Source of the DNA: Patescibacteria group bacterium
Lineage (GTDB): Bacteria > Patescibacteriota > Patescibacteriia > JBDRGY01
Assembly (NCBI GenBank): GCA_043817315.1
Contig: JBDRGY010000002.1
Location: 1,046-65,045, forward strand
Direction of reading: 5' to 3'
DNA length: 64,000 nt
Numbering within the stretch: the first letter of the stretch is position 1; each line of letters starts with the position of its first letter. The position numbers were made by a program, and so were the translations under genes. Positions 3,678-60,356 of the stretch are shown here, in pieces. The notes below the pieces were generated by a model, which saw only the letters and a program-made list of their open reading frames with translations, ran no database searches and had not been told where the DNA came from.

Positions 3678-3775
3678 GGTTGAATCTATTTTTGTTTTCT
3701 TTGGATTAAATACCAAAATACAACGCTCTCGCTATTTAAAGCGAGTCGTCATTGGCGTTCTATATTATATCACAA

Positions 3776-3815
3776 AAAGGGGCTTAAGTCAAAGTCCCCT
3801 TTTTATCTTTTTCCC
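3776..3815 (-). terminator. Rho-independent terminator hairpin (AAAAGGGG...CCCCTTTT) between giant genes B and A
   Basis: Inverted repeat AAAAAGGGGCTTAAGTCAAAGTCCCCTTTTT followed by a T-run on the minus strand; reads the same on both strands (bidirectional). Confidence 0.4.
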
Positions 3816-3824
3816 TATACTTAG

Positions 3825-6800
3825 CTAAAACAAATTTCCCATATTACTCATCCAAGAGAAAGTATCAGACAGATTATCTATTACGATTTGTAAAAATGAT
3901 TCTCTCTTTCTGGAGGTTAGGACAGAGTAGCTATCAGATAGGGTTTCATTGTCTGCTTTATCAGTTGCCACAACGCGGAAATGGTAGGTTCTGGCTGGTT
4001 CCAGGTCTTTGATTACCATGATGTGGTCAATCACTAGTTCTGGATTTACATCGGTTGATCCGGTGTAAGTGGAAGAAGAAAGTCCTTCTCCGTATTCCAA
4101 TTGGGAAGAAGTTGGTTCATTGGTCATCCAGGAGACAATAATCTGGACTGAAGCGGTATCACCAGACCCCACAGTATTAGCCTCATATCTAACATCAGAA
4201 ATAATAGGCGGCGTAGTATCTTCTAAAGTGGTAAAGGATTCTTCGGGGGAAACTGCTTCGTAACCGAATTGATCCCTGCCCCTGACTGTAAACTGGTAGG
4301 TGGTGGCATCTTCCAGTCCAAAGACCAGGACACTGTGATCAGTTACCAGGGCGGTATTGCCTTGAGTTTTGGAAGGTGTGTCTTCATTACCGTATTCCAC
4401 CTCTGAAGTAGTGGGTACGTTGGTGGTCCATTTGACTTCGGTCTGGCCTTCAGCCTTGTTTTCTGATGACACACTTAAAACTCTGGGGAAAGTAAGGGTG
4501 GTAAAAGCATAATCCCCTGATTCCGGTGCATTGTCGGTAGCATCTAAACCAGTAGGCCGAAAATGATAAGTGGTTCCGTCACTTAAGCCTGACAATTTCA
4601 AGGTGTGAGATAGGGTTGAAGAACCGGTAGTGTCGTAAACTACGGAGCCATAATCTGTAGTGGTGCCATAATCAATCAGTGAAGTTGTTTCTTTATTGGT
4701 TTTCCAGGAGATAGTGGCTTCATATAGTTTAATATCACTAACCACAACTTCAGAAACCCGGGGCGCTTCCAGGGTGGTTAAGCTACTGATCGAGGACAGG
4801 GCAATGTTTCCGTCAATATCCCGAGAACGAATACGGTAATAATATTTGGTCTCAGCATTTAGACCCTCCAAAACTACAGTGTGGTCGTCACTCTCTTCAA
4901 TGGTTCCCTGCTCTTCGCCCAAATCTTCAGTCAAGCCATATTCAGCGTGAGAATCCGCCTCTCGGTCTGTTTCCCAAGTAATAGTGGCTGTAAAGGAATC
5001 AGGAGTGACTGTGGGGCCAGCTGAAATCGTAGGCGGCGTCCGGTATCTGCCCTCTGGAATCTCGGAAACTACAGTGGAGGCAGCAGATTGAGCTCCGGCA
5101 TTGTCTTTGGCCGTTACTTTATAGTAATAAGTGGTTTCATTAGATAAACTGGTATCGATGTAGGCAATCGATTGAGTTTCGCTGATATCTTCAAAGGTCT
5201 TATTGTCAGTCGAGCGTTTGATTATATAAGCTACCTCTTCACCTTCACCAGAACTTATAGTAGTCGGTGGGTCCCAAGTTAGGGTCAGCATATACTTTTC
5301 AGTGTATCTGTCAGACGAATCAATGATTAACATATTGGTGGGAGCACCCGGCGCCGCCGTATTAGCCTCGAACTCTATGCTGGCATGATTGTCGTAGTTG
5401 ATGTTACCGGCATCATCGATAGCTACTATGTAAAAAGTGTTAGTACCTTGTTGGGTGGCATAAGGTCCCGGGCCTAAAGTGGTCTGGGCAGTGTAGGAAG
5501 AGTTGGTTACACTTGGCTCCTGATTAATTGAATAGTAGTAGCCCTCTATGGTTACCCCTTCATCAACCGGTTCCCCCCAGGTGAATTTGAAAGAGTTGGT
5601 GGTGTTACTGGTAGGGGCAACTGCCAGGCTAGTTGGAGCTGATGGGGCATCCGCTGTTTCAAAGGTGTAATCACCAGAATAGCCGGTATTGTCGTCCTCA
5701 TCAGTAAACTTTACTCTGTAATGATATGTGGTATCCGGTTCCAAACCGATCAGGTTAACACTGTGAGAGGATAGATGATCATCCTGGCCGGCTTCGCTAC
5801 CATAGGCTGTGGTTTCCCCATATTCCACGAATGAAGAACATTCTCTGTCTGTTAACCATTCAATAGTGGCTGATTGGATCCTGGTTTCTGCCCCTGGGTT
5901 ACCGACCAGGCTGGGAGCTTCATAATATCTGCCTCTAGCTTGTTCACAGACTTCGCTGGAAGCTGCTGAGGCTGCCTCGGCGTTGTCGGTGGCTTTAATC
6001 TGGTAGCAATACCAGGCATTCTGGGTTAAACCGGTATCCAGATAACCGGTTCCTGTTACTTGGGATATTTCGGTGTAAGTATCCCCGCCATCATCTGATC
6101 TTTCTACTTTGTAGTGATCAATTCCTCCGCCTACTTGATCCGGTTCTTCCCAGGTAACGGTTAGTCTAAAGGTGCCTTGTTCTCTGTTAGAAGAATCAGT
6201 GACGATAATTCCGGTAGGAATACCGGGGGCTGAGGTTGAGGCTGTAAATTCTATGGAAGAATAGGAACTCCAGTTCTTATTGCCGGCAGTATCTACTGCC
6301 ACCACGTAGAAAACATTAGCCCCTTGCTGGGTGGCAAAAGCATCTGGGCCAATGGTGGTTTGGGTGGTGTAAGTAACATTGTTAGCGTTAGGAATAGCGT
6401 TAATAGCGTAGTAATAACCAGCTATAGTAGTATCATGGCTGGCTGGTTCCAGCCAGGAGAAAGTAAAGGAATTAGTGGTATTAGAGGCTGGATCTACTTG
6501 TAGATTCTGAGGTTCTGATGGAGCGTTGGCTGAATAATAATAGTTTACTGAAGTGTAGTAATCAAGCAGATTTCCAGCCACATCTTTGGACCTGACGTAA
6601 AAAACATTAGTGCCTTCCTGGTAAGAGGTGATTCCAGAGACAGTGGTTTCCGCAATACAGGTATCGGTGGCAGCCGGTGCCCCTGTTTTGTAGCAGTATT
6701 CACCAATGCCGGAATGGGCATCGGAGCCGGCATTCCAAGTAAAAGAATAACTATCTTCACTGGAAAAACCAGCTGGGTTGGGTAGGATCCCAGAGGGGTT

Positions 6801-8891
6801 GCCGGGGTCAGTGGCGTCGTATTTGAAAGTGAAGGCGGTCCAGGTTGCTACGGCTTTATTTCCGGCAACATCCTGAGTTTTAATCCTTAAATAGTAGGTG
6901 CCTGATGACGAAGGAGCAGCAGTATAATTGGCATCAGTAGAATAACTACCAGCAGTGGGATCACAACTAACTGCCCCAAAACACACCCAATAACCGTGGA
7001 CTCCAGATGGATTACCCTCTGGTCCGGCTGCATCAGCTGCTCCTGCCCATGTAAAATACGGTCCGGTGTGGTTGTACCAAGTGGCCGTAGTAATGGCATC
7101 GCCTCCGTTTTCGGAATAACCATTGATGGTGTCTGGATTGGTTGGCGGGGTAACATCAGAAGGGGTAAAAGCAATGGAATTATCTTCAAAGATTGGAGTG
7201 TTTCCTCCAGAGGGCGTTAAGGTCAACTGATACTGGACATACTGCTCTGTGTCAGTCACGCAGCTGTTGGCGCTCATATCTGAACCGCTTCCTATTGCCG
7301 TGCAAGTTGAAAAATCTGGAGCACCGAACATCACCGCGCTGTCAGAAGTGCGCACTTTGACTGCCACGGTACCTGAGCCCGAAGAATTATAAGCAAGATT
7401 GCCCCAGTCAGCTGAGAATTCAGTGTTAAAAATATTAGAGGTGAGTGTCCCTGTTGATTCATAATCTGATAGACTAAAATCATCGACGTAAACTGTTTTA
7501 CTAGCCTTCACCTGCACTCCATAAGTACGACTAGAAGCAGCCCCGGTTACAGTACCGGTTAGTTTGTACCAACCACCAGCATCGGCAGTGAAGGCTGTGG
7601 TCACAGTTGAGCCGTTGGCATAAAGCTCCACGTCAGCATCAGTTACTTCCGAGCCGTCAGTATAGGCGTAGGCTACTAAAGTATAAGAATTTGTATCTCC
7701 TACATTAACATTCTGTAAAAGTTCCACGGTATTTGTTCCAGAAACTACCTTGGCTGATCCTGCTCCATTTCTTTTGGTGTCGGTATCCAAAGTAAGGGTA
7801 CTGCCCAAGTTAAACTTGTTAGCCAAGAAGTTTTCCACCCCGTGGCGGTCTGCGGCTGAGATCACTTCGTCATAAATCATAAATTCAGCTATACGTCCGT
7901 TAAGATTCCAGGTACCATCGGCCCATTTGCCGATGGCTAGCCGCGGACTGGAAAAAGTGGCCTGGGAACCAATGGCGCTGACGGACTGCGATACACCATT
8001 AAACCAAAGAAAATGGCGGTTTCCAGTATTAGAAACTTGCTGGGAAAAAATCTGGAACCCCGAATCTATATTGGGACCATTGGCCACACCACCGTTGTAA
8101 TAGTTATAGTAGTCATCAGCGGTTCCTCCAGGAGCGTAGCGGGAGATAGACGATCCATTACTTGGACTGGCTGGATTGTAAATGAAGTATAGGTAATCGT
8201 AATTACTAGACGGCTGATTGGTGTAGTCAAACGAGGCCACTGAGATAACAGTGATATCAGTGATCGAAGCAATAGAAGTTAAGTCCACATAAAGCACTTC
8301 TCCGTTGCCAGCTGTATCAACGTCTGGCGAAAATTGGAGAACCGCTCGGCTATTCAACTCATCTGTTTCATAAGTCGGTCGGCGGCTGGCTGACGTTTGG
8401 GAAGCGTCGTTATTGCTGCTCGATTGGTCTCCCCAAACCTGGACGGTCTGTCCGTCTGTGGCCAGGGTTGAACCATTGTCATTATAGGCTTCAGCGTCTG
8501 CTCGCCCATAAAACTCTAAACCGCTGATAGTGGTCGGATCTATGCCCAGCCAGCTGTCTAGATCACTAGAATCATCAACGCCTGTATCAGAAAATTCCTC
8601 AGTGGCTGATACTGATACCTGCCCGGCCGTGGTAGTAGCATCAATATTTGATCCTGAAGCGTATTCGTCTACGGTCGAAGAGCCTACGCCACCACTCCAA
8701 TCAGTCTGCGTCCAGGGTGAATCGGCTGCTCGGGTAAACGGCCATTGGGTAACCAGTACAACTATAACCAATACTAAAAATACCGAGATTATCATTTGGA
8801 TTCGGTACTTAACCCGGTAAATTCTAAGCCTAGCTAAAGCCTCTTTTAGCTGCTTCCTTAAATCAGAGGTTTTACTCTGTCTGGATTTCAT
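3825..8891 (-). CDS. Giant surface protein B (1688 aa): N-terminal signal-anchor, LamG/concanavalin-like lectin domain, carbohydrate-binding-like module, repeated Fn3/PAP-N-like modules
   Basis: ORF track. N-terminal TM helix IISVFLVLVIVVLVTQW. Segment ISVASFDYTNQPSSNYDYLYFIY...HFLWFNGVSQ...RLAIGKWADGTWNLNGRIAEFMIYDEVIS has a LamG_3-like pattern. The C-terminal ~600 aa are highly similar to the C-terminus of gene C, including the terminal tail ...RESFLQIVIDNLSDTFSWMSNMGNLF. Confidence 0.85.
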   Translation of the reverse strand: MKSRQSKTSDLRKQLKEALARLRIYRVKYRIQMIISVFLVLVIVVLVTQWPFTRAADSPWTQTDWSGGVGSSTVDEYASGSNIDATTTAGQVSVSATEEFSDTGVDDSSDLDSWLGIDPTTISGLEFYGRADAEAYNDNGSTLATDGQTVQVWGDQSSSNNDASQTSASRRPTYETDELNSRAVLQFSPDVDTAGNGEVLYVDLTSIASITDITVISVASFDYTNQPSSNYDYLYFIYNPASPSNGSSISRYAPGGTADDYYNYYNGGVANGPNIDSGFQIFSQQVSNTGNRHFLWFNGVSQSVSAIGSQATFSSPRLAIGKWADGTWNLNGRIAEFMIYDEVISAADRHGVENFLANKFNLGSTLTLDTDTKRNGAGSAKVVSGTNTVELLQNVNVGDTNSYTLVAYAYTDGSEVTDADVELYANGSTVTTAFTADAGGWYKLTGTVTGAASSRTYGVQVKASKTVYVDDFSLSDYESTGTLTSNIFNTEFSADWGNLAYNSSGSGTVAVKVRTSDSAVMFGAPDFSTCTAIGSGSDMSANSCVTDTEQYVQYQLTLTPSGGNTPIFEDNSIAFTPSDVTPPTNPDTINGYSENGGDAITTATWYNHTGPYFTWAGAADAAGPEGNPSGVHGYWVCFGAVSCDPTAGSYSTDANYTAAPSSSGTYYLRIKTQDVAGNKAVATWTAFTFKYDATDPGNPSGILPNPAGFSSEDSYSFTWNAGSDAHSGIGEYCYKTGAPAATDTCIAETTVSGITSYQEGTNVFYVRSKDVAGNLLDYYTSVNYYYSANAPSEPQNLQVDPASNTTNSFTFSWLEPASHDTTIAGYYYAINAIPNANNVTYTTQTTIGPDAFATQQGANVFYVVAVDTAGNKNWSSYSSIEFTASTSAPGIPTGIIVTDSSNREQGTFRLTVTWEEPDQVGGGIDHYKVERSDDGGDTYTEISQVTGTGYLDTGLTQNAWYCYQIKATDNAEAASAASSEVCEQARGRYYEAPSLVGNPGAETRIQSATIEWLTDRECSSFVEYGETTAYGSEAGQDDHLSSHSVNLIGLEPDTTYHYRVKFTDEDDNTGYSGDYTFETADAPSAPTSLAVAPTSNTTNSFKFTWGEPVDEGVTIEGYYYSINQEPSVTNSSYTAQTTLGPGPYATQQGTNTFYIVAIDDAGNINYDNHASIEFEANTAAPGAPTNMLIIDSSDRYTEKYMLTLTWDPPTTISSGEGEEVAYIIKRSTDNKTFEDISETQSIAYIDTSLSNETTYYYKVTAKDNAGAQSAASTVVSEIPEGRYRTPPTISAGPTVTPDSFTATITWETDREADSHAEYGLTEDLGEEQGTIEESDDHTVVLEGLNAETKYYYRIRSRDIDGNIALSSISSLTTLEAPRVSEVVVSDIKLYEATISWKTNKETTSLIDYGTTTDYGSVVYDTTGSSTLSHTLKLSGLSDGTTYHFRPTGLDATDNAPESGDYAFTTLTFPRVLSVSSENKAEGQTEVKWTTNVPTTSEVEYGNEDTPSKTQGNTALVTDHSVLVFGLEDATTYQFTVRGRDQFGYEAVSPEESFTTLEDTTPPIISDVRYEANTVGSGDTASVQIIVSWMTNEPTSSQLEYGEGLSSSTYTGSTDVNPELVIDHIMVIKDLEPARTYHFRVVATDKADNETLSDSYSVLTSRKRESFLQIVIDNLSDTFSWMSNMGNLF

Positions 8892-8894
8892 TTA

Positions 8895-11800
8895 TTAAAA
8901 CAAATTGCCGATGTTTCCTAACCAGGAGAAAGTCTGTTCTAGGTTGGAGATAACTATCTGCAAGAAAGATTCTCTGGCCCTGGAAGTTAACACTGAATAA
9001 TCGTCCGATTTAGTTTCGTTTCCAGCTTTATCTACAGCTATTGTTCTAAAATGGTAAGTTCGGGCCGGCTCCAGGTCGGGTATAATCATCAAGTGATCCT
9101 GCACCAGTTCCGGATTAATATCGGTCGAAGCTGAATATGAAGTTGACCCCAGCCCCTCCCCAAAATCAGCCGCGGTAGTGGTTGGCTCATCAGTTCTAAA
9201 GGAGACAATAATCTGAATTCTGGCTGCATCACCCGATCCCACTGTATTGGACTCATACTTGACGTGAGAAATGGTAGGCGGCGTAGTATCCTCTAAGGTT
9301 CTAAAGTTGTTTTCTACTGAAACGGCCTCGTAGCCGAATTGGTCGCGGCCCCGAACCACAAAATTGTAAATAGTTGCATCATTTAAGCCAAAAAGCAAGA
9401 CGGAGTGATCGGTTACCAGGGCAGTATTACCTTGAGTTTTGGACGGTTCATTTTCATTGTAGTATTCCACTTCCGAAGTAGTGGGCACATTGGTGGTCCA
9501 CCTAATCTCTGTTTGACCTTCGGCTTTGTTTTCCGAGGTAACATCAGACACTCGCGGAAAGGTTAGGGTAGTAAAGACATAATTATCCGAATTAAATTTA
9601 TTGCCGGAAGCATCTTCTGCATAAACTCTCAAATTATAGGTGGTTCCGTCTGCTAATCCTGTCAGTTTAATAGTGTGAGTAAAGCTAGTAGAGCCAGAGG
9701 TGTCAGTGTAGGTTAAACCATAATCCGTAGTAGTCCCATATTGAATCTGGGTAGTCGTTTCTTTATTAGTTTTCCAGGAAATTGTCGCTTCATACAACCT
9801 AATATCAGTAATCTCCATTTCCGATACCCGCGGCGCTTCTAGAGTAATAAATGAGGTTACGTCGGAATAGGCTTCATTTTCATCTCGGTCAATGGATTTT
9901 ACCTGGTAGTAATAAGTAGTTTCTGGATCTAAACCGGTAATCGTCACCGAATGATCATCAATTAAGTCAGAAGTTCCCTGTTCTCGATCATAATCTGTAG
10001 CCGAAGTTCCAAACAGGACAAAGGAGGAGGCCGGTCTTTCTGTTTTCCAGGTGACGGTGGCCGCAAAGGAATCAGGTACTATGGCCGGTCCAGCTGTAAT
10101 TTCCGGCGGAGTGGTATAACGACCGTCAGCTATTTCTTCAACTGGATCAGTGGCCGCTGAAGCGGATCCGGCTTTGTCAGCTGCTTTTACCTTGTAAAAA
10201 TATAATGTCTCAAATTCTAAATCAGTATCGATATAGGCAGTAGATTTGGTGGTGGCAATAACCTCATAGTCATTGTCCTCTTCAACCGCTCTATATATTG
10301 TATAGGTAATTTCTTCTTCCAGATCTTCTTCGACTGCATCTTTTACGATTCCAGAGGCACTGGGAGGATCAACCGAATTCCAACTGACCATTATTCGATA
10401 TTCTTTATCGGCCCGGTTGGAGACATCAAAGACTTCAGGATTAAGAGGAGCATCCGGCGGGATGGTATGAGCTTCAAAATCCACTACCGCATAATTGGCA
10501 TAATTTACATTACCGGCATCATCAGTGGCCACTACGTAGAAATTATTTATTCCCTGTTGAGTGGCTGCCGCAATCGGGCCTACTTCCGTATGAGTAGTAT
10601 AATAGACATTATCTTCGTTGGGCGGGGCATTAATACTGTAGTAATAACCTCCGACCGTAATTCCCTCGTCTACCGGCTCGGCCCAAGAGAAAGTGAAGCG
10701 ATTAACCATGTTTGATTCCGGATCAACTGCCAGATTGACCGGAGCGGAAGGGGCACCCAAGGTGGTTACTTCGTATATGGCTGATTCCCCGGTATTTCCA
10801 TCTTGGTCCACCCAGACTAATTTATAGTAATAAAGGGTGTCCGGTGATAGTCCAGTGACTAAAACCTCATGCTCGTCAACCAACTCTGAGGTGCCGGTTT
10901 CTTCTCCCAAACCTTCAGTCGTTCCGTATTGGACAAAAGAGGTAGCCGGATGAGGAATAACATTACCCAAACGATCTTGATCTGGCAAAGTCAGCCACTC
11001 GACCAAAACGGACCTGATGTAAGGAGTTACCGTCGGCTGACCGGACATAGTTGGGGCAAATTTAAATTTACCTTCCGGCTTAATACTTTCTACTGCCGAA
11101 TTACCGGAAGCGGCATTCCCACTGCCAACCGCTCTGATGAAATAACTATAGGTAATGGTGTTGTCCAAACTGGTATCTAAATAACCCAAAGTGGTAGTTG
11201 TAGCAATGTTGGTGTAATTATCTGGGGGATCAGCTACTGTGGATGGATTCTCACAATCTTCCTCACAACGATAAACTTTAAAGTTCTCGGCATTGGCCGT
11301 TTCATCCCAAGTCAGAGTGACTGAATATTTTTGAGTGGAACGATCAGAGGAGTCAGTCGCCTGCAAACTGGCTGGCGGATCTGGAGCAGTAGAAGTGAAG
11401 TCATAAGTTGTAGAGGTATAATTATCGTAATCAATGTTATTAATCACATCAGCTGCCACCAGATATAAAGTATTAGTCCCTTGTTGGGTAGCCGCTGAAA
11501 AACCAGGTAATAATCTGTTGTCAGTCTGATAGGCCGAGGTCCAACCACCGTCCGGACTGGGGGTAGTATTGCCGGCCGTATTGGTACCACAATTTTCGGC
11601 GCTAGGTAATTCATTGATTGTGAAACAATAACGTAAAATTTCATTAACATCACAAGGAGTCTGACCCAAACAGGTAGCCGGTAAGCTCCAGGAAAAGGAA
11701 AAAGTGTTATTGTTTGTGGCTGAAGTAGGCGTCGCCACTAAATTTTGCGGGGCTGTTGGCGGACTACCGGCATAGTAATAAGTAGTAGTGGCATAAGAAG

Positions 11801-14800
11801 AATAGTTGCCCGCCTCATCCAGGGCTCTAACATAGAAAATATTACCTCTGGTTCGATAAGCGGTAATTTCGGTTATGTGATTGTCATCAATGCAGGTATC
11901 AACAGCGCCGGGGGCCCCGGTTTTATAACAATAATACTCAACCCCGGAACCACCGCCATCAGTTGACACGTCCCAAGAAAAATCAAAGTCATTAGTTGAG
12001 GTGTAACCCGAGGGTGTGGCCGATACGTCAGATGGGTTAGAGGGATCAATAATATCTAATTTATAGGTAAAAGTATTAGTCGGATTAGTAGTGATATTAC
12101 CGTTATTATCGACAGTTTTTATTATCAAATAATAAGTATCGGAGGTGAGGGCAGAGGCCGCCTGGGTAGCTGCATTCCAGGAACCGTCATTGCCGGAGGC
12201 TGAATATAAATTAGTGCCGGAAACATAAGCCAGGTTAGTGGGATCGCTGGCATCATCAACCGGATCTTTGCCGCTGTCATTCCCAAAATAGACATAAAAT
12301 CCTGACAATCCAATTCCGCCGGCATTATCTGCGCCGGTCCATTCAAAGTAAGGTGTAGCGTCATTAACCCAAGTATCAGTCGCAATCTCTGTTCCCCCAT
12401 CTTCGGTATAGCCGGTTGCTGAAGTCGGGTTGGTTGGGGCCGTTCCGTCAGTATAATAACTCCAAGTTAGATCATCGACCGTCGGTGAATAAAGTTGGTC
12501 AGTCACAAAATAAATTCTAACTTGTCCATACTGAGCCACGGTAGAATCAATGCTGTAATAATTAGTGCTACTAATTTCCCGATTATTGGAAACCGCTGTC
12601 CAGTCCCCCCAATTGACGTCATCTTCATCATCAGCGCAGCCGGCATTAGAACAAGTTCTAGTTTCTATACTAATAGAAGTATTAGCCGGTTCGGTTACAT
12701 TGACCGTTAGTCCTCCGTAGCCATAAACCCCAGCCTCAAAATCCAGAATTTCTGAAGTCCAATAACCGTTACCCTCAAAACCGGTGCTGGAAGTGGCCAC
12801 CACGTAACGTTCCATTGAAGTGGTATATTCTCCGCGGAAACCCAAGACCACATTATTGCCGGTCATTACCAGGTCACCGTATTCGAAGAAAGAAGTTGTG
12901 TCTCGTGTACTCCAACTATCTTCCGAGATGTCATAAACGTACATTTCATTGCCATTGGGCTCATCACCGCGCGGGATTAAAATATTTCCCTGACCGTCCG
13001 GCACGCAGGCATCGCCGTAGCGCATATTACCCGGAGCCAATGACAGAGTACCGGCCACGTCCCAAGTTTGTGAACCGATATTAAATCGATAGATATCGTC
13101 TTGATTGTTACCACGCACCATATAAATATAACCATCTCCGCCGTTAGCAGCACAACCACCAGTATAAACAGTTCCGGGGATAGCCGAGGCAACTGTCTCC
13201 CAGATATCTGTATCAATTGTGTACTTATAAAATTCTGTGGTGTTGGCGCCTCGGGCCGTATAGATAGTATTGGTTCCATCAAACACCAAATCCGATCCGT
13301 AATTAGTTTCGTTAGCCGCCGTATTGGTGTTATCCAATCTAGTCCACTTATCATCATTTATATCGTAGCGCCAAAAGGTTCCTTCATTTTCCGTTAAGCC
13401 GCTTTCTCCCGGTAATAGATAGACTCCATCATATTGGTCACTGCTATGATTTATATATTGGGCTGACGCTCCCGGTCTAACCCGCATAGGTGCATTGGCT
13501 CTGCGCTTCCAAACATCATTGGCGATATCATAAGACCACCACTCATTGGAATTACCGCCCCTGGCCACATACAGCATATCGTTATCATTATCATAAGCCA
13601 CGGCTCCGTAGTAAAAACCATAGTTGGTATATGTATGAGGCAAGGTCGGAGTTTTCCAGCGATTTTCAGAAACGTCATAGGCCAGCAGGGCATAATCAAC
13701 CTGATAGCCCCGAATGGTGTACATGGTGTCATTAGAAGGAACGTAAACCAGGTTGCCAGCCCCTCCCTGGTATTGAGTAGTCGGCAAATCATCCAACCAT
13801 TCCCAGTTTTCATTGGCAATGTCATAACGCAGAAAACCGTTAGCTGCATAACCCCGCACTAGGTAAAAATAACCATCCAAATAATAGGCGGAGGCACCAT
13901 AATGGGTCCAGATGGGCACGCTTTTTTCATAAGACCAGGTGTTGGCCGAGACCCTATAGGAATAAAAATCGGTATCGCCATAACCTCTGGTGGCATACAG
14001 ACAGCCACCTTCGTCACTGCAATAATCACCATTGGGCACATATACTAAAGTACCGCCATAATAAACCAATTGGTCAAAACCGGTCAGCTGAGTCCAATCA
14101 TCAGCCGTTTCTCCTTCTCCGACATCGGTAATAATGTTGTATTTCCAGAACTCATTGGTGGCATCTCCCCTGGTGGCATAAATAGCATTGGCGCCATCAT
14201 AGGCCAGTTGACTACCATAATAGATTTGGGACCCTTCGAAATCACTCAGGTCTGTCCAGGTGCCGGCATTAACGTTGTAGCGGCGGAAAGTGGCGGTGTT
14301 GTTACCGCCGGTGGCAAAAACACAACCTGCCGAATCGGCACAATAGGTACCGGTTGGCACATAGACCATACTGGCGCCACCGTAAACCCCCGATCCGTAA
14401 TTGGCCAGTTGAGAATAAGTTTTATCGGCTACCGAGTAAGCGTAAAATTCCTGGCGGTTGTAACCGCGGAACATAAAAATGGTGTCATCGCCGTCATAGG
14501 ACAATCCCGATCCGTAGTAACCGCCGACATTATTGGCCACCCAGGGAATGGGTGCTTCGTTGGTCCAGATGCCGTTGCTGACTGAATCCAAAGTCAGGCT
14601 GGTCCCGGATTCAGCCGCCGTATTGATATTGGTCTCCAAAGTTCCGGTCGCTTGGAAATCGGCCTGGACCGTCCAGGTATTGGTACCGGCCGGAGAAATA
14701 CCGTTATAGGTATAAGTAAAGATAGTCTCTACATCATCCGTATTGCCGGCATCATCCTTGGCCGCCACCCGCAAATAATAAGTACTGCTGTTGGTCAGAT

Positions 14801-17800
14801 CGGTATTGACTTCGTAAGTGGTTCCGGTTTGAAAATAATCTTCGGAACTGGTCGGATCGTGAGAGGCGTTGGTAGTCCAGGACAAGTAATACCCGGCCAA
14901 GCCTGATTCGGCGTCCACAGCCCCGGTTAGTTCGAAGTAAGGATTAATATAATAGTAGGAATTGCCGGTGGTTAAAGCAGTTCCCTTGGTTGAATCAGCG
15001 TAACCGACCACAGTCGGGTTAGTCGGATTGACTGAATCCTTTTCGTAGTTAATCGTAAATTCAGAAACAGTTGGAGTATTATCGTCATCCGAATTTAAAA
15101 CCACTTTGACCTGAATATAACGATTAGCCGAAGAACCAATGGTGGTGCCGGAAACTTGAGTCCAGTCCTCCCAGGAAACTTGGTCATCAGAAGTCCTGGT
15201 GTAGTAGTCAATTGTACTACCCCCCGGCTCTAAATCAGTGGCCGTAAAACTGTTAAACGAGGTAGCGTAAGTCAGATCGTAAGTCGGAGAAATCCAACTG
15301 GCTGTGGGAATGTAATCATCAGAATCGGTAGTAAATTTATAAATGGAATTGGTATCAAACCCTCGGCGAATGTACATGGTATCAGTGGCATCATCATGAG
15401 CCATGCCAATGCCACGGACAAAATTATCAGGAGTATCACTGGCCCGGCTCCAACTATCTCCCGAGATGCTGTAGCGCCACATAGAGGTGCCGAAATTGCC
15501 GGTAATGGCGTAGATACTGTCATCTCCGTCATAGGCCAACACTGCGTTGTAATAGGAACCTTCCGGTAAGTCGGCCAATTCGGTGAAGTCATCGCCAACC
15601 GGATCGTATTCGTAAAATTGAGCCCGATAATAACCGGCTAGCATATACACTTTGTTGCCATCGTTGGTTATTCCTGCACCATAATAAGCGGTCACCGGTA
15701 GATCTTCTGTAGTCCAACTGCCATCATAATGATAAATATCGTCAGTATTGTTGCCTGCCTGAATATAGACGTCACCATCACCAAAACAGGTGATTCCCCC
15801 TCCTTCTTCCACCGCTCCCGGCATACTGCCAATACTGGACCAGCCTCCGGCATCATTGCTGATGTCATAACTGTAAAAATTAGTTGTGTTAATACCCCTG
15901 GTCAAATACAGTTCTCCATTGCCGTCATAACACAGCGAGCCGCCCCGGCTGATATTGGCTAAGCCGGTCGAGGTCATGGTGTTCCAGGCTCCATCGGCAA
16001 TATCATAACGATAGAAAATGGTGGTATTTCTACCCTGGGCCATAAACAAACACCCGGTGGCATCAGAACAACCGTCTTCACTGTTGGGCACAAAGGTGAT
16101 CAGATCGCTGTCGTAATCATTGCTGGCAATAGCCGGGGTGGCAATAGAGTCCCAAGCCCCGGCAGTAATGTCATAACGCAAGAATTCCGGCCGGTTGATT
16201 CCGGGCAGAGCATATATATAGCCGTCAAAGTAGAGGAGAGTACCGCCTTCATCAACCGTTAACCCCCCCGGCATATCCGGCGGATTATCAAGATCTTCCT
16301 GCCATTCCTGGTCAGCAATATCGTACATCATAAACTCGTCATTGTTGTAACCGGTCATGGCGTAGATATTTCCGTTGACAGCGTCAACCGCCATGGAACT
16401 GCCGTAGCTAATCCGGCCGCTGTTGCCCAGGGTGGTCGGTACATTGGCAAAATTGTAAGACCATTGAGCCAGGCTGATATCATAACGGAAAAACTCGCGA
16501 TTGTTGCTGCCCCGAAAAGCGTAGATACAACCGGTCTCACAATAAACCGGACTAGTGCCATAAGAAACCGCTGAATAGACCAAGGGGTGGCCGTTGCCGG
16601 TATAAATCTGATAAGGATAGGGAATTGAAGAAATGGTGTCGTTCCAAGTATCAGTGGCAATGTTGTATGACCAAAACCCGTCCCGGCTGTTACCTTGCGT
16701 GGCGTACAGTTTACCGTTATTGCCACTGACCAGATCCGAACCCAAACCCCAGATGTCCGGCGCATCGCTTAATTGGGTCCAAATATTATTGGCAATATCA
16801 TAGCGAAACAGAAAGGGCACGCCGTTGGTGTCGTCCGAACCGTCCTGCCCGTTGATGGCATAAATATAACCGTCATAATAAGCTAGCGAGCCTCCGTAAT
16901 AGAAACCGGTTGGCGCATCAATCAGTAATTTCCAGATATTTAACTCCGGATTATAACGAAAGAAGCCCGGTTGGTTGCCACCCACGATCATGTAGATGTA
17001 AGTACCATCAGTGGTTAAATCTGCTCCATAATTGGCGCCTTCGTAAGTATAGATGCCATAGCCACGCTGATTGGTGGGATAACCCGGAGTATCTGCACTC
17101 CAAGAACCAACTCCGCCACTGGCAATTTGCAGATCACCAGAGGTTGTGGTCATGTCTAGTTGGTTAGGATAATATTGCCCGGCTTGCCACTCGGTTTGGG
17201 AAGAGACTGTGTAGGTAGCTGCCGTAGCGTGTACCAACAGTTGCTGAATTGATCCGGCCACTAGGGTGCCAATAATCAAAATTACAAAAATCGAAATAGG
17301 AGAAAAGTGCCACCACTTCTTTTTTCTAAGAACAATTAAAGGTTTTATTTTACTTTTTTCTTTTTTACGACGTTGCTGGGCCGATTTGCTAATTGCCTTT
17401 TGCCAACTGGCATGTTTTTGGGAAATTCTACCCGGGATAGCTATTATTGTTTTTATAAATCCAGTAGTTAATCCAATAACCCGCCGCCATCTGGCCTGAT
17501 TTACCTTTTTGGTAGTTTGAATGTCTTTTTTAAGATATCTCTTGGCTTTCAACTGACGGGCTCTAACGACACTTTTAACTTGCTCTCGTTTTTTAACCGG
17601 TTTAACAAAAATACTGGCTGTCTTCTCAAAGCCAGAACGCATAAGCTGGGGAATTTCTAATTTATCTTTTAGATTGAAAGAGTATTTAAAACCCTTGGGA
17701 CGACTAAAAACTTTACCGGAGTAACTGTTTCCTCCAGTTTTTTTGGACGTTTTCCCCAGAAATCTACGTGTCCCCATAGATTTCAACTTGTTTTTTTGGT

Positions 17801-17813
17801 TTGTATTTTTCAC
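8895..17813 (-). CDS. Giant surface protein C (2972 aa): ~165-aa basic cytoplasmic N-tail, single TM anchor, Kelch-like beta-propeller repeat region, Fn3/PAP-N-like modules, conserved C-terminal tail
   Basis: ORF track. K/R-rich N-terminus, then TM FSPISIFVILIIGTLVAGSI. Many repeats of the type G..Y.....G..F.RYD...N.W..L (Kelch-like). C-terminal modules ...RARESFLQIVISNLEQTFSWLGNIGNLF are paralogous to gene B. The stop is only 3 nt from the gene B start, consistent with an operon. Confidence 0.85.
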   Translation of the reverse strand: MKNTNQKNKLKSMGTRRFLGKTSKKTGGNSYSGKVFSRPKGFKYSFNLKDKLEIPQLMRSGFEKTASIFVKPVKKREQVKSVVRARQLKAKRYLKKDIQTTKKVNQARWRRVIGLTTGFIKTIIAIPGRISQKHASWQKAISKSAQQRRKKEKSKIKPLIVLRKKKWWHFSPISIFVILIIGTLVAGSIQQLLVHATAATYTVSSQTEWQAGQYYPNQLDMTTTSGDLQIASGGVGSWSADTPGYPTNQRGYGIYTYEGANYGADLTTDGTYIYMIVGGNQPGFFRYNPELNIWKLLIDAPTGFYYGGSLAYYDGYIYAINGQDGSDDTNGVPFLFRYDIANNIWTQLSDAPDIWGLGSDLVSGNNGKLYATQGNSRDGFWSYNIATDTWNDTISSIPYPYQIYTGNGHPLVYSAVSYGTSPVYCETGCIYAFRGSNNREFFRYDISLAQWSYNFANVPTTLGNSGRISYGSSMAVDAVNGNIYAMTGYNNDEFMMYDIADQEWQEDLDNPPDMPGGLTVDEGGTLLYFDGYIYALPGINRPEFLRYDITAGAWDSIATPAIASNDYDSDLITFVPNSEDGCSDATGCLFMAQGRNTTIFYRYDIADGAWNTMTSTGLANISRGGSLCYDGNGELYLTRGINTTNFYSYDISNDAGGWSSIGSMPGAVEEGGGITCFGDGDVYIQAGNNTDDIYHYDGSWTTEDLPVTAYYGAGITNDGNKVYMLAGYYRAQFYEYDPVGDDFTELADLPEGSYYNAVLAYDGDDSIYAITGNFGTSMWRYSISGDSWSRASDTPDNFVRGIGMAHDDATDTMYIRRGFDTNSIYKFTTDSDDYIPTASWISPTYDLTYATSFNSFTATDLEPGGSTIDYYTRTSDDQVSWEDWTQVSGTTIGSSANRYIQVKVVLNSDDDNTPTVSEFTINYEKDSVNPTNPTVVGYADSTKGTALTTGNSYYYINPYFELTGAVDAESGLAGYYLSWTTNASHDPTSSEDYFQTGTTYEVNTDLTNSSTYYLRVAAKDDAGNTDDVETIFTYTYNGISPAGTNTWTVQADFQATGTLETNINTAAESGTSLTLDSVSNGIWTNEAPIPWVANNVGGYYGSGLSYDGDDTIFMFRGYNRQEFYAYSVADKTYSQLANYGSGVYGGASMVYVPTGTYCADSAGCVFATGGNNTATFRRYNVNAGTWTDLSDFEGSQIYYGSQLAYDGANAIYATRGDATNEFWKYNIITDVGEGETADDWTQLTGFDQLVYYGGTLVYVPNGDYCSDEGGCLYATRGYGDTDFYSYRVSANTWSYEKSVPIWTHYGASAYYLDGYFYLVRGYAANGFLRYDIANENWEWLDDLPTTQYQGGAGNLVYVPSNDTMYTIRGYQVDYALLAYDVSENRWKTPTLPHTYTNYGFYYGAVAYDNDNDMLYVARGGNSNEWWSYDIANDVWKRRANAPMRVRPGASAQYINHSSDQYDGVYLLPGESGLTENEGTFWRYDINDDKWTRLDNTNTAANETNYGSDLVFDGTNTIYTARGANTTEFYKYTIDTDIWETVASAIPGTVYTGGCAANGGDGYIYMVRGNNQDDIYRFNIGSQTWDVAGTLSLAPGNMRYGDACVPDGQGNILIPRGDEPNGNEMYVYDISEDSWSTRDTTSFFEYGDLVMTGNNVVLGFRGEYTTSMERYVVATSSTGFEGNGYWTSEILDFEAGVYGYGGLTVNVTEPANTSISIETRTCSNAGCADDEDDVNWGDWTAVSNNREISSTNYYSIDSTVAQYGQVRIYFVTDQLYSPTVDDLTWSYYTDGTAPTNPTSATGYTEDGGTEIATDTWVNDATPYFEWTGADNAGGIGLSGFYVYFGNDSGKDPVDDASDPTNLAYVSGTNLYSASGNDGSWNAATQAASALTSDTYYLIIKTVDNNGNITTNPTNTFTYKLDIIDPSNPSDVSATPSGYTSTNDFDFSWDVSTDGGGSGVEYYCYKTGAPGAVDTCIDDNHITEITAYRTRGNIFYVRALDEAGNYSSYATTTYYYAGSPPTAPQNLVATPTSATNNNTFSFSWSLPATCLGQTPCDVNEILRYCFTINELPSAENCGTNTAGNTTPSPDGGWTSAYQTDNRLLPGFSAATQQGTNTLYLVAADVINNIDYDNYTSTTYDFTSTAPDPPASLQATDSSDRSTQKYSVTLTWDETANAENFKVYRCEEDCENPSTVADPPDNYTNIATTTTLGYLDTSLDNTITYSYFIRAVGSGNAASGNSAVESIKPEGKFKFAPTMSGQPTVTPYIRSVLVEWLTLPDQDRLGNVIPHPATSFVQYGTTEGLGEETGTSELVDEHEVLVTGLSPDTLYYYKLVWVDQDGNTGESAIYEVTTLGAPSAPVNLAVDPESNMVNRFTFSWAEPVDEGITVGGYYYSINAPPNEDNVYYTTHTEVGPIAAATQQGINNFYVVATDDAGNVNYANYAVVDFEAHTIPPDAPLNPEVFDVSNRADKEYRIMVSWNSVDPPSASGIVKDAVEEDLEEEITYTIYRAVEEDNDYEVIATTKSTAYIDTDLEFETLYFYKVKAADKAGSASAATDPVEEIADGRYTTPPEITAGPAIVPDSFAATVTWKTERPASSFVLFGTSATDYDREQGTSDLIDDHSVTITGLDPETTYYYQVKSIDRDENEAYSDVTSFITLEAPRVSEMEITDIRLYEATISWKTNKETTTQIQYGTTTDYGLTYTDTSGSTSFTHTIKLTGLADGTTYNLRVYAEDASGNKFNSDNYVFTTLTFPRVSDVTSENKAEGQTEIRWTTNVPTTSEVEYYNENEPSKTQGNTALVTDHSVLLFGLNDATIYNFVVRGRDQFGYEAVSVENNFRTLEDTTPPTISHVKYESNTVGSGDAARIQIIVSFRTDEPTTTAADFGEGLGSTSYSASTDINPELVQDHLMIIPDLEPARTYHFRTIAVDKAGNETKSDDYSVLTSRARESFLQIVISNLEQTFSWLGNIGNLF

Positions 17814-30216: not shown

Positions 30217-30349
30217 CTCTATTTTACGAAGCTTATTTTTGGCTATTATTAGGTAAAAGTCTGCATATTTTTTCTAATATTGACGTTTTGCTGACAAGAT
30301 GTTCCACGTGGAACATCATCTGTATTTTTAGCTAAGGTTAGGCAAATTT

Positions 30350-30421
30350 GCCCTTGTAGCTCAATGGATAGAGCAGATCCGTCCTAAGGATAAGATGGGG
30401 GTTCGATTCCCTCCAAGGGCA
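30350..30421 (+). tRNA. tRNA-Arg (anticodon CCT), no encoded CCA
   Basis: Acceptor GCCCTTG/CAAGGGC, D-arm GCTC-AATGGATA-GAGC, anticodon loop GTCCTAA, T-arm GGGGG-TTCGATT-CCCTC. Confidence 0.8.
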
Positions 30422-30501
30422 TATTACAGCGAATTCTTAAGGTCTTGAGCCGTATGAAAGGCCGAAATCCCGCCGATTGGCGGGGCCTCTCGGGAGACCA
30501 T

Positions 30502-30556
30502 GGGCCGTTAGCTCAGTTGGCTAGAGCGTCACTTTCGCACCCGCCTATCGGAGTGC
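30502..30556 (+). pseudogene. 5' fragment of a tRNA-Ala (CGC)-like gene (acceptor, D-arm and anticodon-loop remnant) directly upstream of the complete tRNA-Ala(CGC)
   Basis: GGGCCGTTAGCTCAGTTGGCTAGAGCGTCACTTTCGCAC is near-identical to the 5' half of the tRNA-Ala at 31767. No matching anticodon 3' stem or T-arm follows. Continues as linker CCGCCTATCGGAGTGC. Confidence 0.5.
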
Positions 30557-30628
30557 GGGCCAGTAGCTCAGTGGTAGAGCACTGCATTCGCATTGCAGGG
30601 GTCAGGGGTTCGACTCCCCTCTGGTCCA
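30557..30628 (+). tRNA. tRNA-Ala (anticodon CGC), G3:U70, no encoded CCA
   Basis: Acceptor GGGCCAG/CTGGTCC (G3:T70), D-arm GCTC-AGTGGTA-GAGC, anticodon stem CTGCA/TGCAG with loop TTCGCAT, T-arm AGGGG-TTCGACT-CCCCT, discriminator A. Confidence 0.9.
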
Positions 30629-30702
30629 TTTCCGCACGGCGGGCAGGTGGCGAAAGTCGCCCCGCTTTTTGGCGGAGCACGGCACCAAATCAAAAAAATG
30701 CC

Positions 30703-30740
30703 TAAAATCAGCCAAATTTTGGCTTGATTGTTTTTACAAA
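30703..30740 (+). terminator. Rho-independent terminator (AGCCAAAATTTTGGCT palindrome plus T-run)
   Basis: Self-complementary CAGCCAAATTTTGGCTTG followed by ATTGTTTTT. Confidence 0.4.
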
Positions 30741-31492: not shown

Positions 31493-31707
31493 AGACTAAA
31501 AACGCTTGCTAGTATTTCTCTTTTTAAGCTATAATCTTTCTAGTAAGCGTTTTTGTTTATGGGCCGGTCCCTAGGTCCCGCACTGCGGGACCGGGATCCC
31601 GATCACCAAAAGTGACTTAGGGATAGTTCAGTTTCCGCCAAAGGCGGACCAGCCTCTGGCTGGGGCTATCATCTCTTTGCGATAAAAAGTATTATATTAA
31701 TCAATTT

Positions 31708-31891
31708 GGGCCGGTAGTTCAGTTAGCTAGAATGCCTCCATGGCATGCCTGCCCGCCAGGACCCATGGGCCGTTGGCTCAGTTGGTAGAGCGTCTCCATG
31801 GCATGGAGAAGGTCACCGGTTCGAATCCGGTCCGGTCCATAGGCTCTGGCAGGCGGGGAGGAGGTCAGGGGTTCGAGTCCCCTCCGGTCTA
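31708..31891 (+). tRNA. Outer tRNA-Ala (GGC) gene interrupted between positions 38 and 39 by a 110-nt insert (31747..31856) that contains a second complete tRNA-Ala(GGC)
   Basis: 5' exon 31708..31746: GGGCCGG TA GTTC-AGTTAGCTA-GAAT G CCTCC ATGGCAT. 3' exon 31857..31891: GGAGG AGGTC AGGGG-TTCGAGT-CCCCT CCGGTCT A, followed by TTTTTTATTT. All stems pair (G1:U72, G3:U70). Insert flanks GCCTGCCCGCC and GGCAGGCGGGG are mutually complementary. Confidence 0.5.
31767..31839 (+). tRNA. tRNA-Ala (anticodon GGC), nested inside the outer tRNA-Ala locus; no encoded CCA
   Basis: Acceptor GGGCCGT with G3:T70, D-arm GCTC-AGTTGGTA-GAGC, anticodon stem TCTCC/GGAGA with loop ATGGCAT, T-arm ACCGG-TTCGAAT-CCGGT, discriminator A. 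Confidence 0.85.
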
Positions 31892-54486: not shown

Positions 54487-54744
54487 ATGAAATATTACGT
54501 CTATATTTTAAAATGTGACGAGGAAAATTTATATACGGGATCGACTTGTGATTTGAAAAATCGGATTGAAAAGCATAAAAAAGGAGAAGGTGCTATATTT
54601 ACCAGAAACAGAAAATCGATTAAACTTGTATATAAAGAACTTTATAAAATAAGGGAGTTGGCTGAAAAAAGAGAAAAGCAGATAAAAGGGTGGTGCAGAA
54701 AAAAGAAGATAAATTTAATCAAATTTGGCCATCCTCTAGGGTAA
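54487..54744 (+). CDS. Small GIY-YIG nuclease-domain protein (85 aa)
   Basis: MKYYVYILKCDEENLYTGSTCDLKNRIEKHKKGEG; GIY-YIG core (YVYIL...LYTGST...R...H). The upstream part of the ORF-track ORF overlaps tRNA-Cys and is excluded. Confidence 0.75.
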   Translation: MKYYVYILKCDEENLYTGSTCDLKNRIEKHKKGEGAIFTRNRKSIKLVYKELYKIRELAEKREKQIKGWCRKKKINLIKFGHPLG

Positions 54745-55901: not shown

Positions 55902-55958
55902 CCGCCCAATTCCTGGAACCTACATCTTTCTAGATAAGTTACAAGAATTGGGCGGGCG
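55899..55958. repeat. Perfect 14-bp inverted repeat CGCCCGCCCAATTC ... GAATTGGGCGGGCG with 32-nt loop, overlapping the 5' end of tRNA-Gly(TCC)
   Basis: Arms at 55899-55912 and 55945-55958 are exact reverse complements. Lies immediately downstream of the minus-strand GIY-YIG gene stop (55963). Confidence 0.5.
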
Positions 55959-55962
55959 CGCC

Positions 55963-56220
55963 TTAACGAGACGCTAGATAATTTTTTAAGTTTTTCTTAA
56001 TAAATCTTCTCCCCCAGCCACTTTTATAGTATCTTTCTCTCTGGAGGGCATCTTGCTTGCTCAGGAAAGCTTCGCAATAAATTAACTTCAGTGGTAAGTG
56101 GGGCTGGGTTGAATAAGTTGACCCTTTATTGTGTTCTTTGACTCTCTTCTTTAGATTCTTGGTGAATCCTATATATAACCTGCCATTTTTCTCACTTTGT
56201 AGAATGTACACGTAATACAT
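55963..56220 (-). CDS. Small GIY-YIG nuclease-domain protein (85 aa), second copy
   Basis: MYYVYILQSEKNGRLYIGFTKNLKKRVKEHNKG; GIY-YIG motif. Confidence 0.75.
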   Translation of the reverse strand: MYYVYILQSEKNGRLYIGFTKNLKKRVKEHNKGSTYSTQPHLPLKLIYCEAFLSKQDALQRERYYKSGWGRRFIKKNLKNYLASR

Positions 56221-60008: not shown

Positions 60009-60030
60009 AATATTTTAGGTTAATAATAGA

Positions 60031-60284: not shown

Positions 60285-60356
60285 TAATTTTAAAAAAAAA
60301 CCTATTTGCTATATCAGTTTAGCCGACCAAGGGCAAAAAGTCAACTAGAAAAACTC

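Follow-up and report, generated by a model that had tools for sequence, protein, structure and literature searches.

Between positions 30502 and 30687 of the 64,000-nucleotide stretch of a Patescibacteria genome analysed here (contig JBDRGY010000002.1, hereafter the window), a complete tRNA-Ala(CGC) gene lies inside the two separated pieces of another tRNA-Ala(CGC) gene, an arrangement that we call a nest. All features of this locus are on the plus strand. The inner gene (30557-30628) was called by ARAGORN, which we used for the inner and outer tRNA genes throughout, and scored 70.1 bits against the Rfam tRNA model RF00005, whose gathering threshold is 29 bits, as befits a regular cloverleaf; it carries the alanine identity pair G3:U70 (G3-T70 in the DNA) and is presumably the functional gene of the locus. 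Upstream of it, the outer 5′ piece (GGGCCGTTAGCTCAGTTGGCTAGAGCGTCACTTTCGCA, 30502-30539), which corresponds to nucleotides (nt) 1-37 of the disrupted resident gene, covers the 5′ strand of the acceptor, the D-arm, the 5′ strand of the anticodon stem and the anticodon loop up to A37. The outer 3′ piece (30648-30687) takes up the same gene from nt 38 onward and is decayed.

The two outer pieces are separated by an insert of 108 nt (30540-30647) composed of the arm X (CCCGCCTATCGGAGTGC, 17 nt, 30540-30556), the complete tRNA-Ala(CGC) and the arm Y (TTTCCGCACGGCGGGCAGG, 19 nt, 30629-30647), so that one reads in succession a GC-rich left arm, a short leader, the tRNA, a short trailer and a right arm. 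X and Y are complementary: CCCGCC (30540-30545) pairs with the GGCGGG inside GGCGGGCAGG (30638-30647), and CGGAG pairs with UUCCG. The fold extends this pairing outward beyond X:Y, where ACTTTCGC (30531-30538) pairs with GCGAAAGT (30650-30657). The X:Y duplex has an energy of -18.8 kcal/mol, which was equalled by 10 of 500 shuffles. No open reading frame (ORF) and no integrase remnant was found in the insert. A first-pass annotation, made by a model from the letters of the window, had described here a complete tRNA-Ala(CGC) preceded by a 39-nt tRNA 5′ portion, with flanks complementary over 8 bp plus 6 bp. The gene and both complementary segments are where it had placed them, and the tRNA origin of the fragment also holds; the fragment starts at 30502 but is 38 nt long, C30540 being the first base of X.

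The syntenic region of three relatives (L119, L120 and L121), whose proteins are 77-80% identical to those of the window, was reached through a homology search with the mechanosensitive-channel gene that lies between this locus and a second Ala locus. Like all the sequences compared in this study, these are metagenome-assembled genomes. At the orthologous position L120 has a single, uninterrupted tRNA-Ala(CGC), the first 38 nt of which match the 5′ piece of the window at 35 of 38 positions, and its nt 38-49 (TTGCGAAGGTCG) align with TGGCGAAAGTCG of the downstream piece at 10 of 12. From the alignment of both flanks it follows that they are the two halves of a resident gene, cut precisely at the nt 37/38 boundary, and no base is duplicated around the insertion. 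Judging by these matches (35/38 for the 5′ piece and 10/12 for the first 12 nt of the 3′ piece), the nest is no chance arrangement. The window contains the corresponding two-start pattern, GGGC...TAGYTCAG N30-55 GGGS...GCTCAG, at two places, and none of 100 shuffles contains it.

Within the 3′ piece, a GC hairpin of 18 nt (CCCCGCTTTTTGGCGGAG, 30660-30677) takes the place of the outer T-arm, and the acceptor strand (ACGGCACCA, 30679-30687) reads ACGGCAC-CA instead of the expected ACGGTCCACCA, two bases having been lost; this is the remnant of a matching 3′ end that had been noticed in the first reading. No tRNA gene was found by ARAGORN in the joined outer halves, and the outer genes were not reported when the program was run with its intron option. 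A search of the isolated flanks with Rfam and Infernal permitting truncated hits, which had been proposed as a check, returned no tRNA match; it is thus through the L120 gene that the pieces were recognised. We conclude from these comparisons that the outer halves are a decaying pseudogene of the resident tRNA-Ala(CGC), and that the suspected nested layout with a degenerate outer copy is borne out.

The nest appears to belong to a transcription unit shared with the upstream tRNA-Arg(CCT) gene (30349-30422, ARAGORN; Rfam 63.2 bits). A promoter-like site, CTGACA-17-CATCAT (30291-30319), a consensus match only, in a region kept in the relatives, would be the start of this Arg-Ala unit, and a terminator-like hairpin with a T-run (30710-30724, a sequence match) would be its end; these two sites suggest that the outer fragment and the inner tRNA are transcribed together. 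The tRNA-Arg(CCT) locus evidently also shows allele replacement. Indeed, a GC hairpin (CCCGCCGATTGGCGGGG, 30469-30485) directly precedes the remnant CCTCTCGGGAGACCA (30486-30500), which, compared by eye, comes from the 3′ end of another tRNA-Arg allele, preserved intact in both L120 and L121. Reciprocally, L120 has (at about 3770-3800) a 3′ remnant, ATTCCCTCCAAGGGCACCA, of the tRNA-Arg(CCT) allele that is intact in the window, preceded by an analogous GC hairpin, ccgcccctggcgggg, at the same place. In the Arg nest of L119 the outer is clearly dead.

Three further nests lie in the window. The second Ala locus, a nested tRNA-Ala(GGC) on the plus strand (31561-31891), has three layers. Its middle gene is interrupted between nt 38 and 39 by an insert of 110 nt (31747-31856), made of X (31747-31766), an inner tRNA-Ala(GGC) that differs from the outer one (31767-31839, ARAGORN; Rfam 59 bits) and Y (31840-31856), with an X:Y duplex of -21.4 kcal/mol. 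The outer 5′ part (nt 1-38, 31708-31746) is identical at 38 of 39 positions to the intact, un-nested tRNA-Ala(GGC) genes of L119 and L121, and joined with the 3′ part (nt 39-73, 31857-31891) it gives a cloverleaf that ARAGORN calls tRNA-Ala(GGC), with CCUCCAUGGCAU followed by GGAGGAGGUCAGGGG at the exon junction, an outer-specific A18 and the T-stem AGGGG/CCCCU. Against these intact orthologues the window outer shows G18A, C72U and the loss of the encoded CCA, and no target duplication. The same substitution of A for the invariant G18 was seen in three independent outers (AGTTAGCTA or AGTTAGTTA): at 31725 in the window, in the Ile outer described below (62363 region) and in L034. In L120 the same cassette lies between badly decayed outer halves; it is 103/107 (96%) identical to that of the window, where the neighbouring genes are 66-75% identical.

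The third, outermost layer of this locus is a decayed 5′ remnant of a tRNA-Ala (31561-31670) that begins where the intact gene begins in L119 and L121 and is 81.5% identical to the L120 outer 5′ piece, with the same two hairpins. It is built of GGGCCGG, an insert of 56 nt (31568-31623), TAGTTCAGTT, two 15-nt hairpins (31634-31648 and 31649-31663) lying in the D-loop, and GGCTA; a conserved promoter-like site, TTGCTA-18-TATAAT (31506-31535), stands just before it. The two Ala loci evidently arose by independent insertions into two genes (CGC at 37/38, GGC at 38/39), with different cassettes. The first-pass annotation had seen in the CGC locus an older, decayed version of the one at 31708: the evidence bears this out, the joined outer being dead at the first and still called at the second, with the correction that the insertions are separate ones.

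The two other nests are on the minus strand. In the nested tRNA-Phe(GAA) (60031-60284), the outer 5′ part (60284-60263) ends in the D-arm and is followed by X (60262-60201), the inner gene (60200-60126), Y (60125-60084) and the outer 3′ part (60083-60031); the joined outer, with GGUAGA followed by GCGAAGG at the exon junction and with GCCGAGG/CCUCGGC, is called tRNA-Phe by ARAGORN, and none of 500 shuffles paired as well as its X:Y duplex (-35.2 kcal/mol). Both copies look intact, the inner having an unusual T-loop, TCCGATT (C at position 55), and the outer the canonical TTCGATT. The outer gene of the nested tRNA-Ile(GAT) (61994-62379) is interrupted three times. Its 5′ side consists of 62379-62358, a hairpin in the D-loop (62357-62322), GAGCGC (62321-62316), an insert of 75 nt (62315-62241) and GTCACTGA (62240-62233). 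The cassette, between nt 35 and 36, comes next (X 62232-62152, inner tRNA 62151-62075, Y 62074-62035), and the outer 3′ part (62034-61994) closes the nest. The joined pieces are called tRNA-Ile, the inner and outer genes differ at 4 of 77 positions, UUAGCUA and UUCGAAU being specific to the outer, and the X:Y duplex (-36.0 kcal/mol) was equalled by 1 of 500 shuffles. In this outer, insertions seem to accumulate faster than point mutations. The CGC locus is the oldest-looking of the four nests.

Several features are common to the four loci. The complementarity of X and Y is significant at each of them. The cassettes end alike in a C-rich/G-rich motif, CCYGCC... and ...GGCRGGCAGG, and CCYGCC...GGCRGG bounds the Ala, Phe, Ile and Arg cassettes; if up to one mismatch is allowed, the window has 12 occurrences of GGCGGGCAGG, where 2.7 would be expected. 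Promoter-like sites were found only upstream of the outermost piece. Removing the insert in silico gives a sequence recognised as a tRNA at the GGC, Phe and Ile loci and not at the CGC locus.

The distribution of the two Ala cassettes differs among the four genomes: that of the CGC locus is present in the window, L119 and L121 and absent from L120, that of the GGC locus is present in the window and L120 and absent from L119 and L121. The inner tRNA-Ala(CGC) of the window is identical at 72 of 72 positions to the gene of L119, which lies in another resident allele, with the same 37/38 junction; a homologous Y follows the tRNA-Ala(CGC) of both L119 and L121. Within the window, the inner and outer CGC genes differ at many positions, with compensatory changes in the stems. 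A scan of metagenomes with a 35-mer of the inner gene brought up mostly unrelated bacteria that share the anticodon arm, the only informative match being L125, from the same organism as L119.

The recurring layout points to a new way of replacing tRNA genes. In the reading that we favour, and to which we give roughly two chances in three, promoterless tRNA cassettes bounded by inverted repeats insert into the loops of a resident gene of the same anticodon and take over its promoter, and the resident gene then decays. A cassette would enter a loop of the resident gene and destroy it; it carries no promoter-like site, and its transcription would start at the resident promoter, here that of the Arg-Ala operon. 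The X:Y stem may insulate the folding of the inner tRNA, which RNase P and the 3′-end processing enzymes would release, and the inner gene would replace the one that it destroyed. Such a replacement would explain why, in a genome whose tRNA genes are single copies, only same-anticodon insertions survive. The nests would subsequently decay through hairpin insertions and through deletions between direct repeats, leaving 5′-only or 3′-only remnants; deletions of this kind could account for the 3′-only states of L119 and L121 and for the 5′-only states seen elsewhere. The same process would have operated at least three more times in the window (Ala-GGC with its three layers, Phe and Ile) and would be widespread in Patescibacteria and present in some DPANN. 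Among relatives, cassettes could spread by homologous recombination through the conserved tRNA halves.

The nests might instead have a purely local origin, slippage, template switching or break repair having duplicated the resident gene, with X and Y as by-products and no mobile cassette. The near-identity of inner and outer genes in some nests (identical in L115, 4 of 77 positions differing in the window Ile nest) would fit such an origin, as would the arrays of L067 and of Woeseiaceae, where a 5′ piece plus spacer is repeated in tandem in a way that looks like slippage or amplification; furthermore, the phage nuclease SegB shows that breaks in tRNA genes can drive recombination-dependent amplification (PMC13096335). 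We nevertheless hold it to be quite unlikely and favour mobility over local duplication, because the inner and outer genes differ by compensatory changes at the CGC and Phe loci, because another genome has an identical copy of the inner tRNA-Ala(CGC) in a different resident allele, and because the distributions of the two Ala cassettes conflict. In addition, one terminal motif bounds cassettes of four tRNA species, and X and Y derive neither from the tRNA nor from its flanks.

Several observations weigh against replacement by mobile cassettes. The outers of the GGC, Phe and Ile loci give perfect cloverleafs once the inserts are removed, the Ile outer in spite of its three interruptions. The extra hairpins are not placed at random and sit in loops or at stem ends, which would also be expected if the fold of the outer RNA mattered, as it would for a spliced RNA. 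Had the window and L120 received the GGC cassette from a shared ancestor, the intact outer of the window would have lasted longer than neutral decay predicts, as by a rough estimate about 7 changes would be expected in it, and 2-3 are seen. X and Y alone are 91% identical between the window and L120, and arms so short are weak evidence for transfer. No transposase, recombinase or integrase to which mobility could be ascribed was found by Pfam in 40 ORFs of the window. In viral contigs we found no nested Ala starts, and a search for CCCCG-tRNA-CGGGG gave 26 chance matches without complementary arms. Finally, it is from sequence that we infer that the resident promoter drives the inner tRNA.

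The first of these points bear on the main rival, an RNA-level reading in which the insert is a tRNA-encoding intron: the unit would be transcribed as a whole, the inner tRNA cut out, or X:Y recognised by an endonuclease, and the outer halves would be ligated, X:Y keeping them together in the manner of Nanoarchaeum split tRNAs, so that each locus would yield two tRNAs. Besides the precise joining of the exons into cloverleafs at three loci and the location of the extra hairpins in loops, the position of the CGC junction, which is the canonical intron position 37/38, is in keeping with this idea, as are the X:Y helix, which begins at the junction and covaries, and the similar layouts of DPANN archaea (L040, L078), which have the splicing endonuclease. 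We regard it as unlikely, however. By hand inspection of the four window nests and of several nests of the Candidate Phyla Radiation (CPR), no bulge-helix-bulge (3 nt, 4 bp, 3 nt), strict or relaxed, was found at the junctions, the best case being the Ile nest with a 4-nt bulge, 3 bp and a 1-nt bulge. The 40 ORFs scanned with Pfam in the window include no splicing endonuclease and no RNA ligase, of the RtcB type or other. Many outers are dead (the CGC outer of the window, the GGC outer of L120, the Arg nest of L119, and L015 and L115, which are without nt 22-32), and an outer would be redundant with an inner of the same anticodon. Moreover, the arms of the CCCCG family of cassettes, described below, have no G-U pairs, which suits a DNA-level repeat better than an RNA helix. 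The CAGG tail was also tried as a junction pairing and rejected, as it pairs with CUG of the Ile anticodon loop and not in the Val or Ala nests.

A more specific form of the idea has outers kept alive by a protein-dependent splicing without bulge-helix-bulge in Patescibacteria, and possibly in DPANN, a nested locus then giving two or more tRNAs. A plain helix at the exon junction would be recognised, the hairpin or tRNA-containing inserts removed and the exons ligated. We consider it improbable.

The nests are by no means confined to the window. We scanned species-representative genomes for two tRNA starts 45-70 nt apart and obtained at least 118 loci. Among the matches listed, the full layout (outer 5′ piece, X, intact same-anticodon tRNA, Y, outer 3′ piece) occurs in many Patescibacteria and some DPANN, and multi-level nests were seen, with at least four levels in L067 and three in L038 and L061. 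The innermost copy that ARAGORN detects was intact in all the nests inspected, and the outer copies carry extra hairpins or lack segments. The arm sequences vary by family (CCTGCCCGCC, CCCCG..., AT-rich in L061) and the pairing is kept. Across eight cassettes of the CCCCG family, 99% of the cells are paired, and the changes are double-sided in 7 of 12 pairs and single-sided in none. Of 28 tRNAs with both outer pieces, 14 lie between perfect inverted repeats of 8 nt or more, versus 10 of 79 tRNAs with neither piece. Matches listed from other phyla are mostly 5′-only fragments or tandem arrays of fragment and spacer (Woeseiaceae, Oscillospiraceae), which may be decayed nests or the product of another process. 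Five metagenome-assembled genomes of Woeseiaceae and Gammaproteobacteria (L012, L017, L042, L049 and L110) have 2-3 tandem units of 46 nt upstream of an intact tRNA-Val(GAC), each made of the first 18 nt of the tRNA and a spacer of 28-31 nt; in L042 there is in addition a 3′ remnant whose T-loop is interrupted. Something related may thus be at work outside the CPR.

This breadth speaks to two further explanations. One is that the nests are assembly artefacts, strain variants of a tRNA gene having been joined into chimeras. All sequences come from metagenome-assembled genomes, and tRNA genes are repeats prone to mis-joining. Yet orthologous nests were recovered from independent samples and assemblers (the window and L120; L119 from ENA and L125 from JGI, with an identical locus), nests are found in records titled complete chromosomes (L084 in OY969413.1, L113 in CP070684.1), and an assembler would not invent complementary, covarying arms; we give this explanation hardly any credence. 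The other starts from the fact that integration classically takes place in tRNA genes, above all in the anticodon and T loops, and leaves partial tRNA copies behind. A prophage or island integrated in the tRNA gene could later have been deleted almost entirely, and one locus of the scan, L039, looks like such a case. Integration, however, duplicates only the part of the tRNA that is 3′ of the crossover, and here 5′ and 3′ pieces flank a complete gene. With a 108-nt insert devoid of integrase remnant, arms that are inverted repeats and the same compact layout in dozens of genomes, an integration scar is very improbable.

How would a cassette enter a tRNA gene? Loop targets, the absence of target duplication, variable arms kept in strict Watson-Crick pairing and a conserved C-rich/G-rich terminus point to a structure-directed event at the DNA level. 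Insertion could proceed by recombination or transposition of a hairpin-forming element, or by repair of a nuclease break; these features, together with the helix at the junction, suggest that the structure might be recognised on folded single-stranded DNA, or that a hairpin-ended fragment might be captured at a break. A DDE transposon or miniature inverted-repeat transposable element was considered and rejected: terminal inverted repeats are present at the four loci and covary across genomes, but no target-site duplication is found at the two Ala loci, which argues against DDE transposases. To our knowledge, none of IS200/IS605, REP/RAYT, IS110, serine-recombinase att sites and P-nucleotide-type repair scars fits all the features together, namely loop targets that are not duplicated and a cargo set between inverted arms whose sequence varies.

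The only non-syntenic protein family that recurs at the CPR nest loci is formed by small, single-domain GIY-YIG ORFs of about 85 aa, UPF0213/SLX1-like. Taking the window and the fetched loci together, 10 of the 11 ORFs of this kind are no more than 145 nt away from a tRNA gene, and six of those in the fetched loci abut tRNAs with nests or 5′ fragments. The two in the window (54487-54744 on the plus strand and 55963-56220 on the minus strand) stand beside tRNA-Cys/Gly(GCC) and tRNA-Gly(TCC), and none adjoins the four nests. These small proteins are a possible driver of breaks in tRNA genes, and the only candidate that we have seen. Just upstream of tRNA-Gly(TCC) there is also a hairpin, CCGCCCAATTC...GAATTGGGCGG (55902-55955), in the style of the GC clamps, with both arms on the same side of the gene. 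SegB, a free-standing GIY-YIG homing endonuclease of the tRNA clusters of phages T4 and T6, cuts inside tRNA genes, and the recombination-dependent repair of its cuts transfers or amplifies the tRNA region (PMC2330249; PMC13096335). Here as there, a GIY-YIG nuclease gene lies beside tRNA genes; the proteins seen here, however, are of about 85 aa, UPF0213/SLX1-like and encoded in cellular genomes, with none beside the CGC nest, and the SegB arrays are tandem rather than nested. A full-text literature search for bacterial or CPR tRNA genes that are nested, interrupted or mobile brought up no description of such nests, the work on SegB being the only relevant one.

Other systems resemble the nests in part. 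In archaea, tRNA genes are disrupted by bulge-helix-bulge introns at canonical and non-canonical positions, with intron transposition in Thermoproteales, and are split or tri-split in Nanoarchaeum and Caldivirga (PMC10714607; PMC3218864; PMC3978253). There too the interruption can be at 37/38 and in the D, anticodon and T loops, with several in one gene; the GC-rich helix beside the tRNA halves of the nests resembles the leader/trailer helix of split tRNAs, and ultra-small symbionts, including DPANN, are concerned. In our case, by contrast, the host is a bacterium, there is no bulge-helix-bulge, the insert holds a complete tRNA of the same anticodon, and the outer is often dead. Group I introns of bacterial tRNA anticodon loops (PMC3984707; bioRxiv 10.1101/2020.01.27.920355) share precise exons and the anticodon-loop interruption with the nests. 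The insert of the CGC locus has no ribozyme core, no match to the Rfam family Intron_gpI having been obtained at the gathering threshold or at E≤10; with 108 nt, 72 of them tRNA, it is far too short, and it contains a tRNA.

Integrative elements that target tRNA genes, where the integrases of phages and islands cross over in the anticodon loop, the T loop or at the 3′ end, likewise insert in a symmetric stem-loop, keep the gene functional through the tRNA sequence that they bring and leave partial-copy scars. The nests differ in their size of about 110-200 nt without integrase, in the whole tRNA brought, in having both 5′ and 3′ remnants and in their inverted-repeat ends. With the attC cassettes of integrons they have in common a promoterless cargo served by a resident promoter, a variable imperfect palindrome with kept pairing and short termini, and repeated stacking. 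Here, though, the termini are CCYGCC/GGCRGG (CCCGCC and GGCGGGCAGG at the CGC locus) and not RYYYAAC/GTTRRRY, the arms flank the cargo, the target is a tRNA gene, and no IntI was found among the scanned ORFs of the window.

Transfer RNA genes are usually seen as the most static of genes and as passive targets in which mobile elements land. In the present case a tRNA gene itself appears to be what moves, landing inside its own counterpart, and the nests leave a datable fossil record of earlier alleles. We would class them as a variant of the insertion elements that target tRNA genes, with a small chance that they betray a categorically new bacterial tRNA splicing. If replacement by nested insertion is true, tRNA alleles turn over fast in the largest uncultivated bacterial radiation, perhaps, speculatively, driven by an arms race with tRNA-targeting nucleases. 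The cassettes would then represent a new, small architecture (GC clamp, AT-rich leader, tRNA, trailer, second clamp), provide natural markers for strain history and offer a bacterial parallel to the origin of archaeal split and intron-containing tRNAs. Were the outers spliced instead, this would be a new RNA-processing pathway in Bacteria, with the first non-ribozyme tRNA intron system there and the first intron with a tRNA cargo. In either case the nests escape routine annotation, as tRNA finders report the innermost copy only and ORF callers put false ORFs over them. Two ORFs of the window, 30445-30705 (plus strand, 86 aa) and 60030-60287 (plus strand, 85 aa), lie wholly over tRNA nests; almost certainly spurious, they could be taken for genes in an annotation.

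Mini-hairpins of about 15-18 nt recur across CPR genomes, in the forms TCCGCC-NNN-GGCGGA, YCAGCC-NNN-GGCTGR and CCCCGC-YTTT-GGCGGGG. They were seen at 30660-30677, 31634-31663 and 30469-30485 in the window and in L120, L067, L076 and L062, and they sit in the D-loop or T-loop of disrupted tRNA copies or replace the T-arm. In L113 and L034 the D-loop of a tRNA remnant is broken by a perfect or near-perfect palindrome of 20 nt, CCTGCCTGCC(G)GCAGGCAGG, which is also found downstream in L104, in an intergenic spacer; this palindrome looks like an empty X+Y pair.

The window as a whole is bacterial, with a G+C content of about 44%, 13 tRNA genes called by ARAGORN and the 3′ part of a 16S rRNA gene at its end; its proteins (P0001 and P0121) are 100% identical to those of a metagenome-assembled Patescibacteria group bacterium, of the CPR. 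This 3′ end and then a plsY-like gene precede tRNA-Ile (62449-63452). Homologues of the PMT gene led us to two further genomes: L122 is not syntenic around the Phe and Ile nests, and in L123, a more distant relative, the 16S rRNA gene is followed by un-nested tRNA-Ile, tRNA-Val and tRNA-Phe. At the other end of the window, two neighbouring giant ORFs of 1688 and 2972 aa lie on the minus strand (3825-8891 and 8895-17813).

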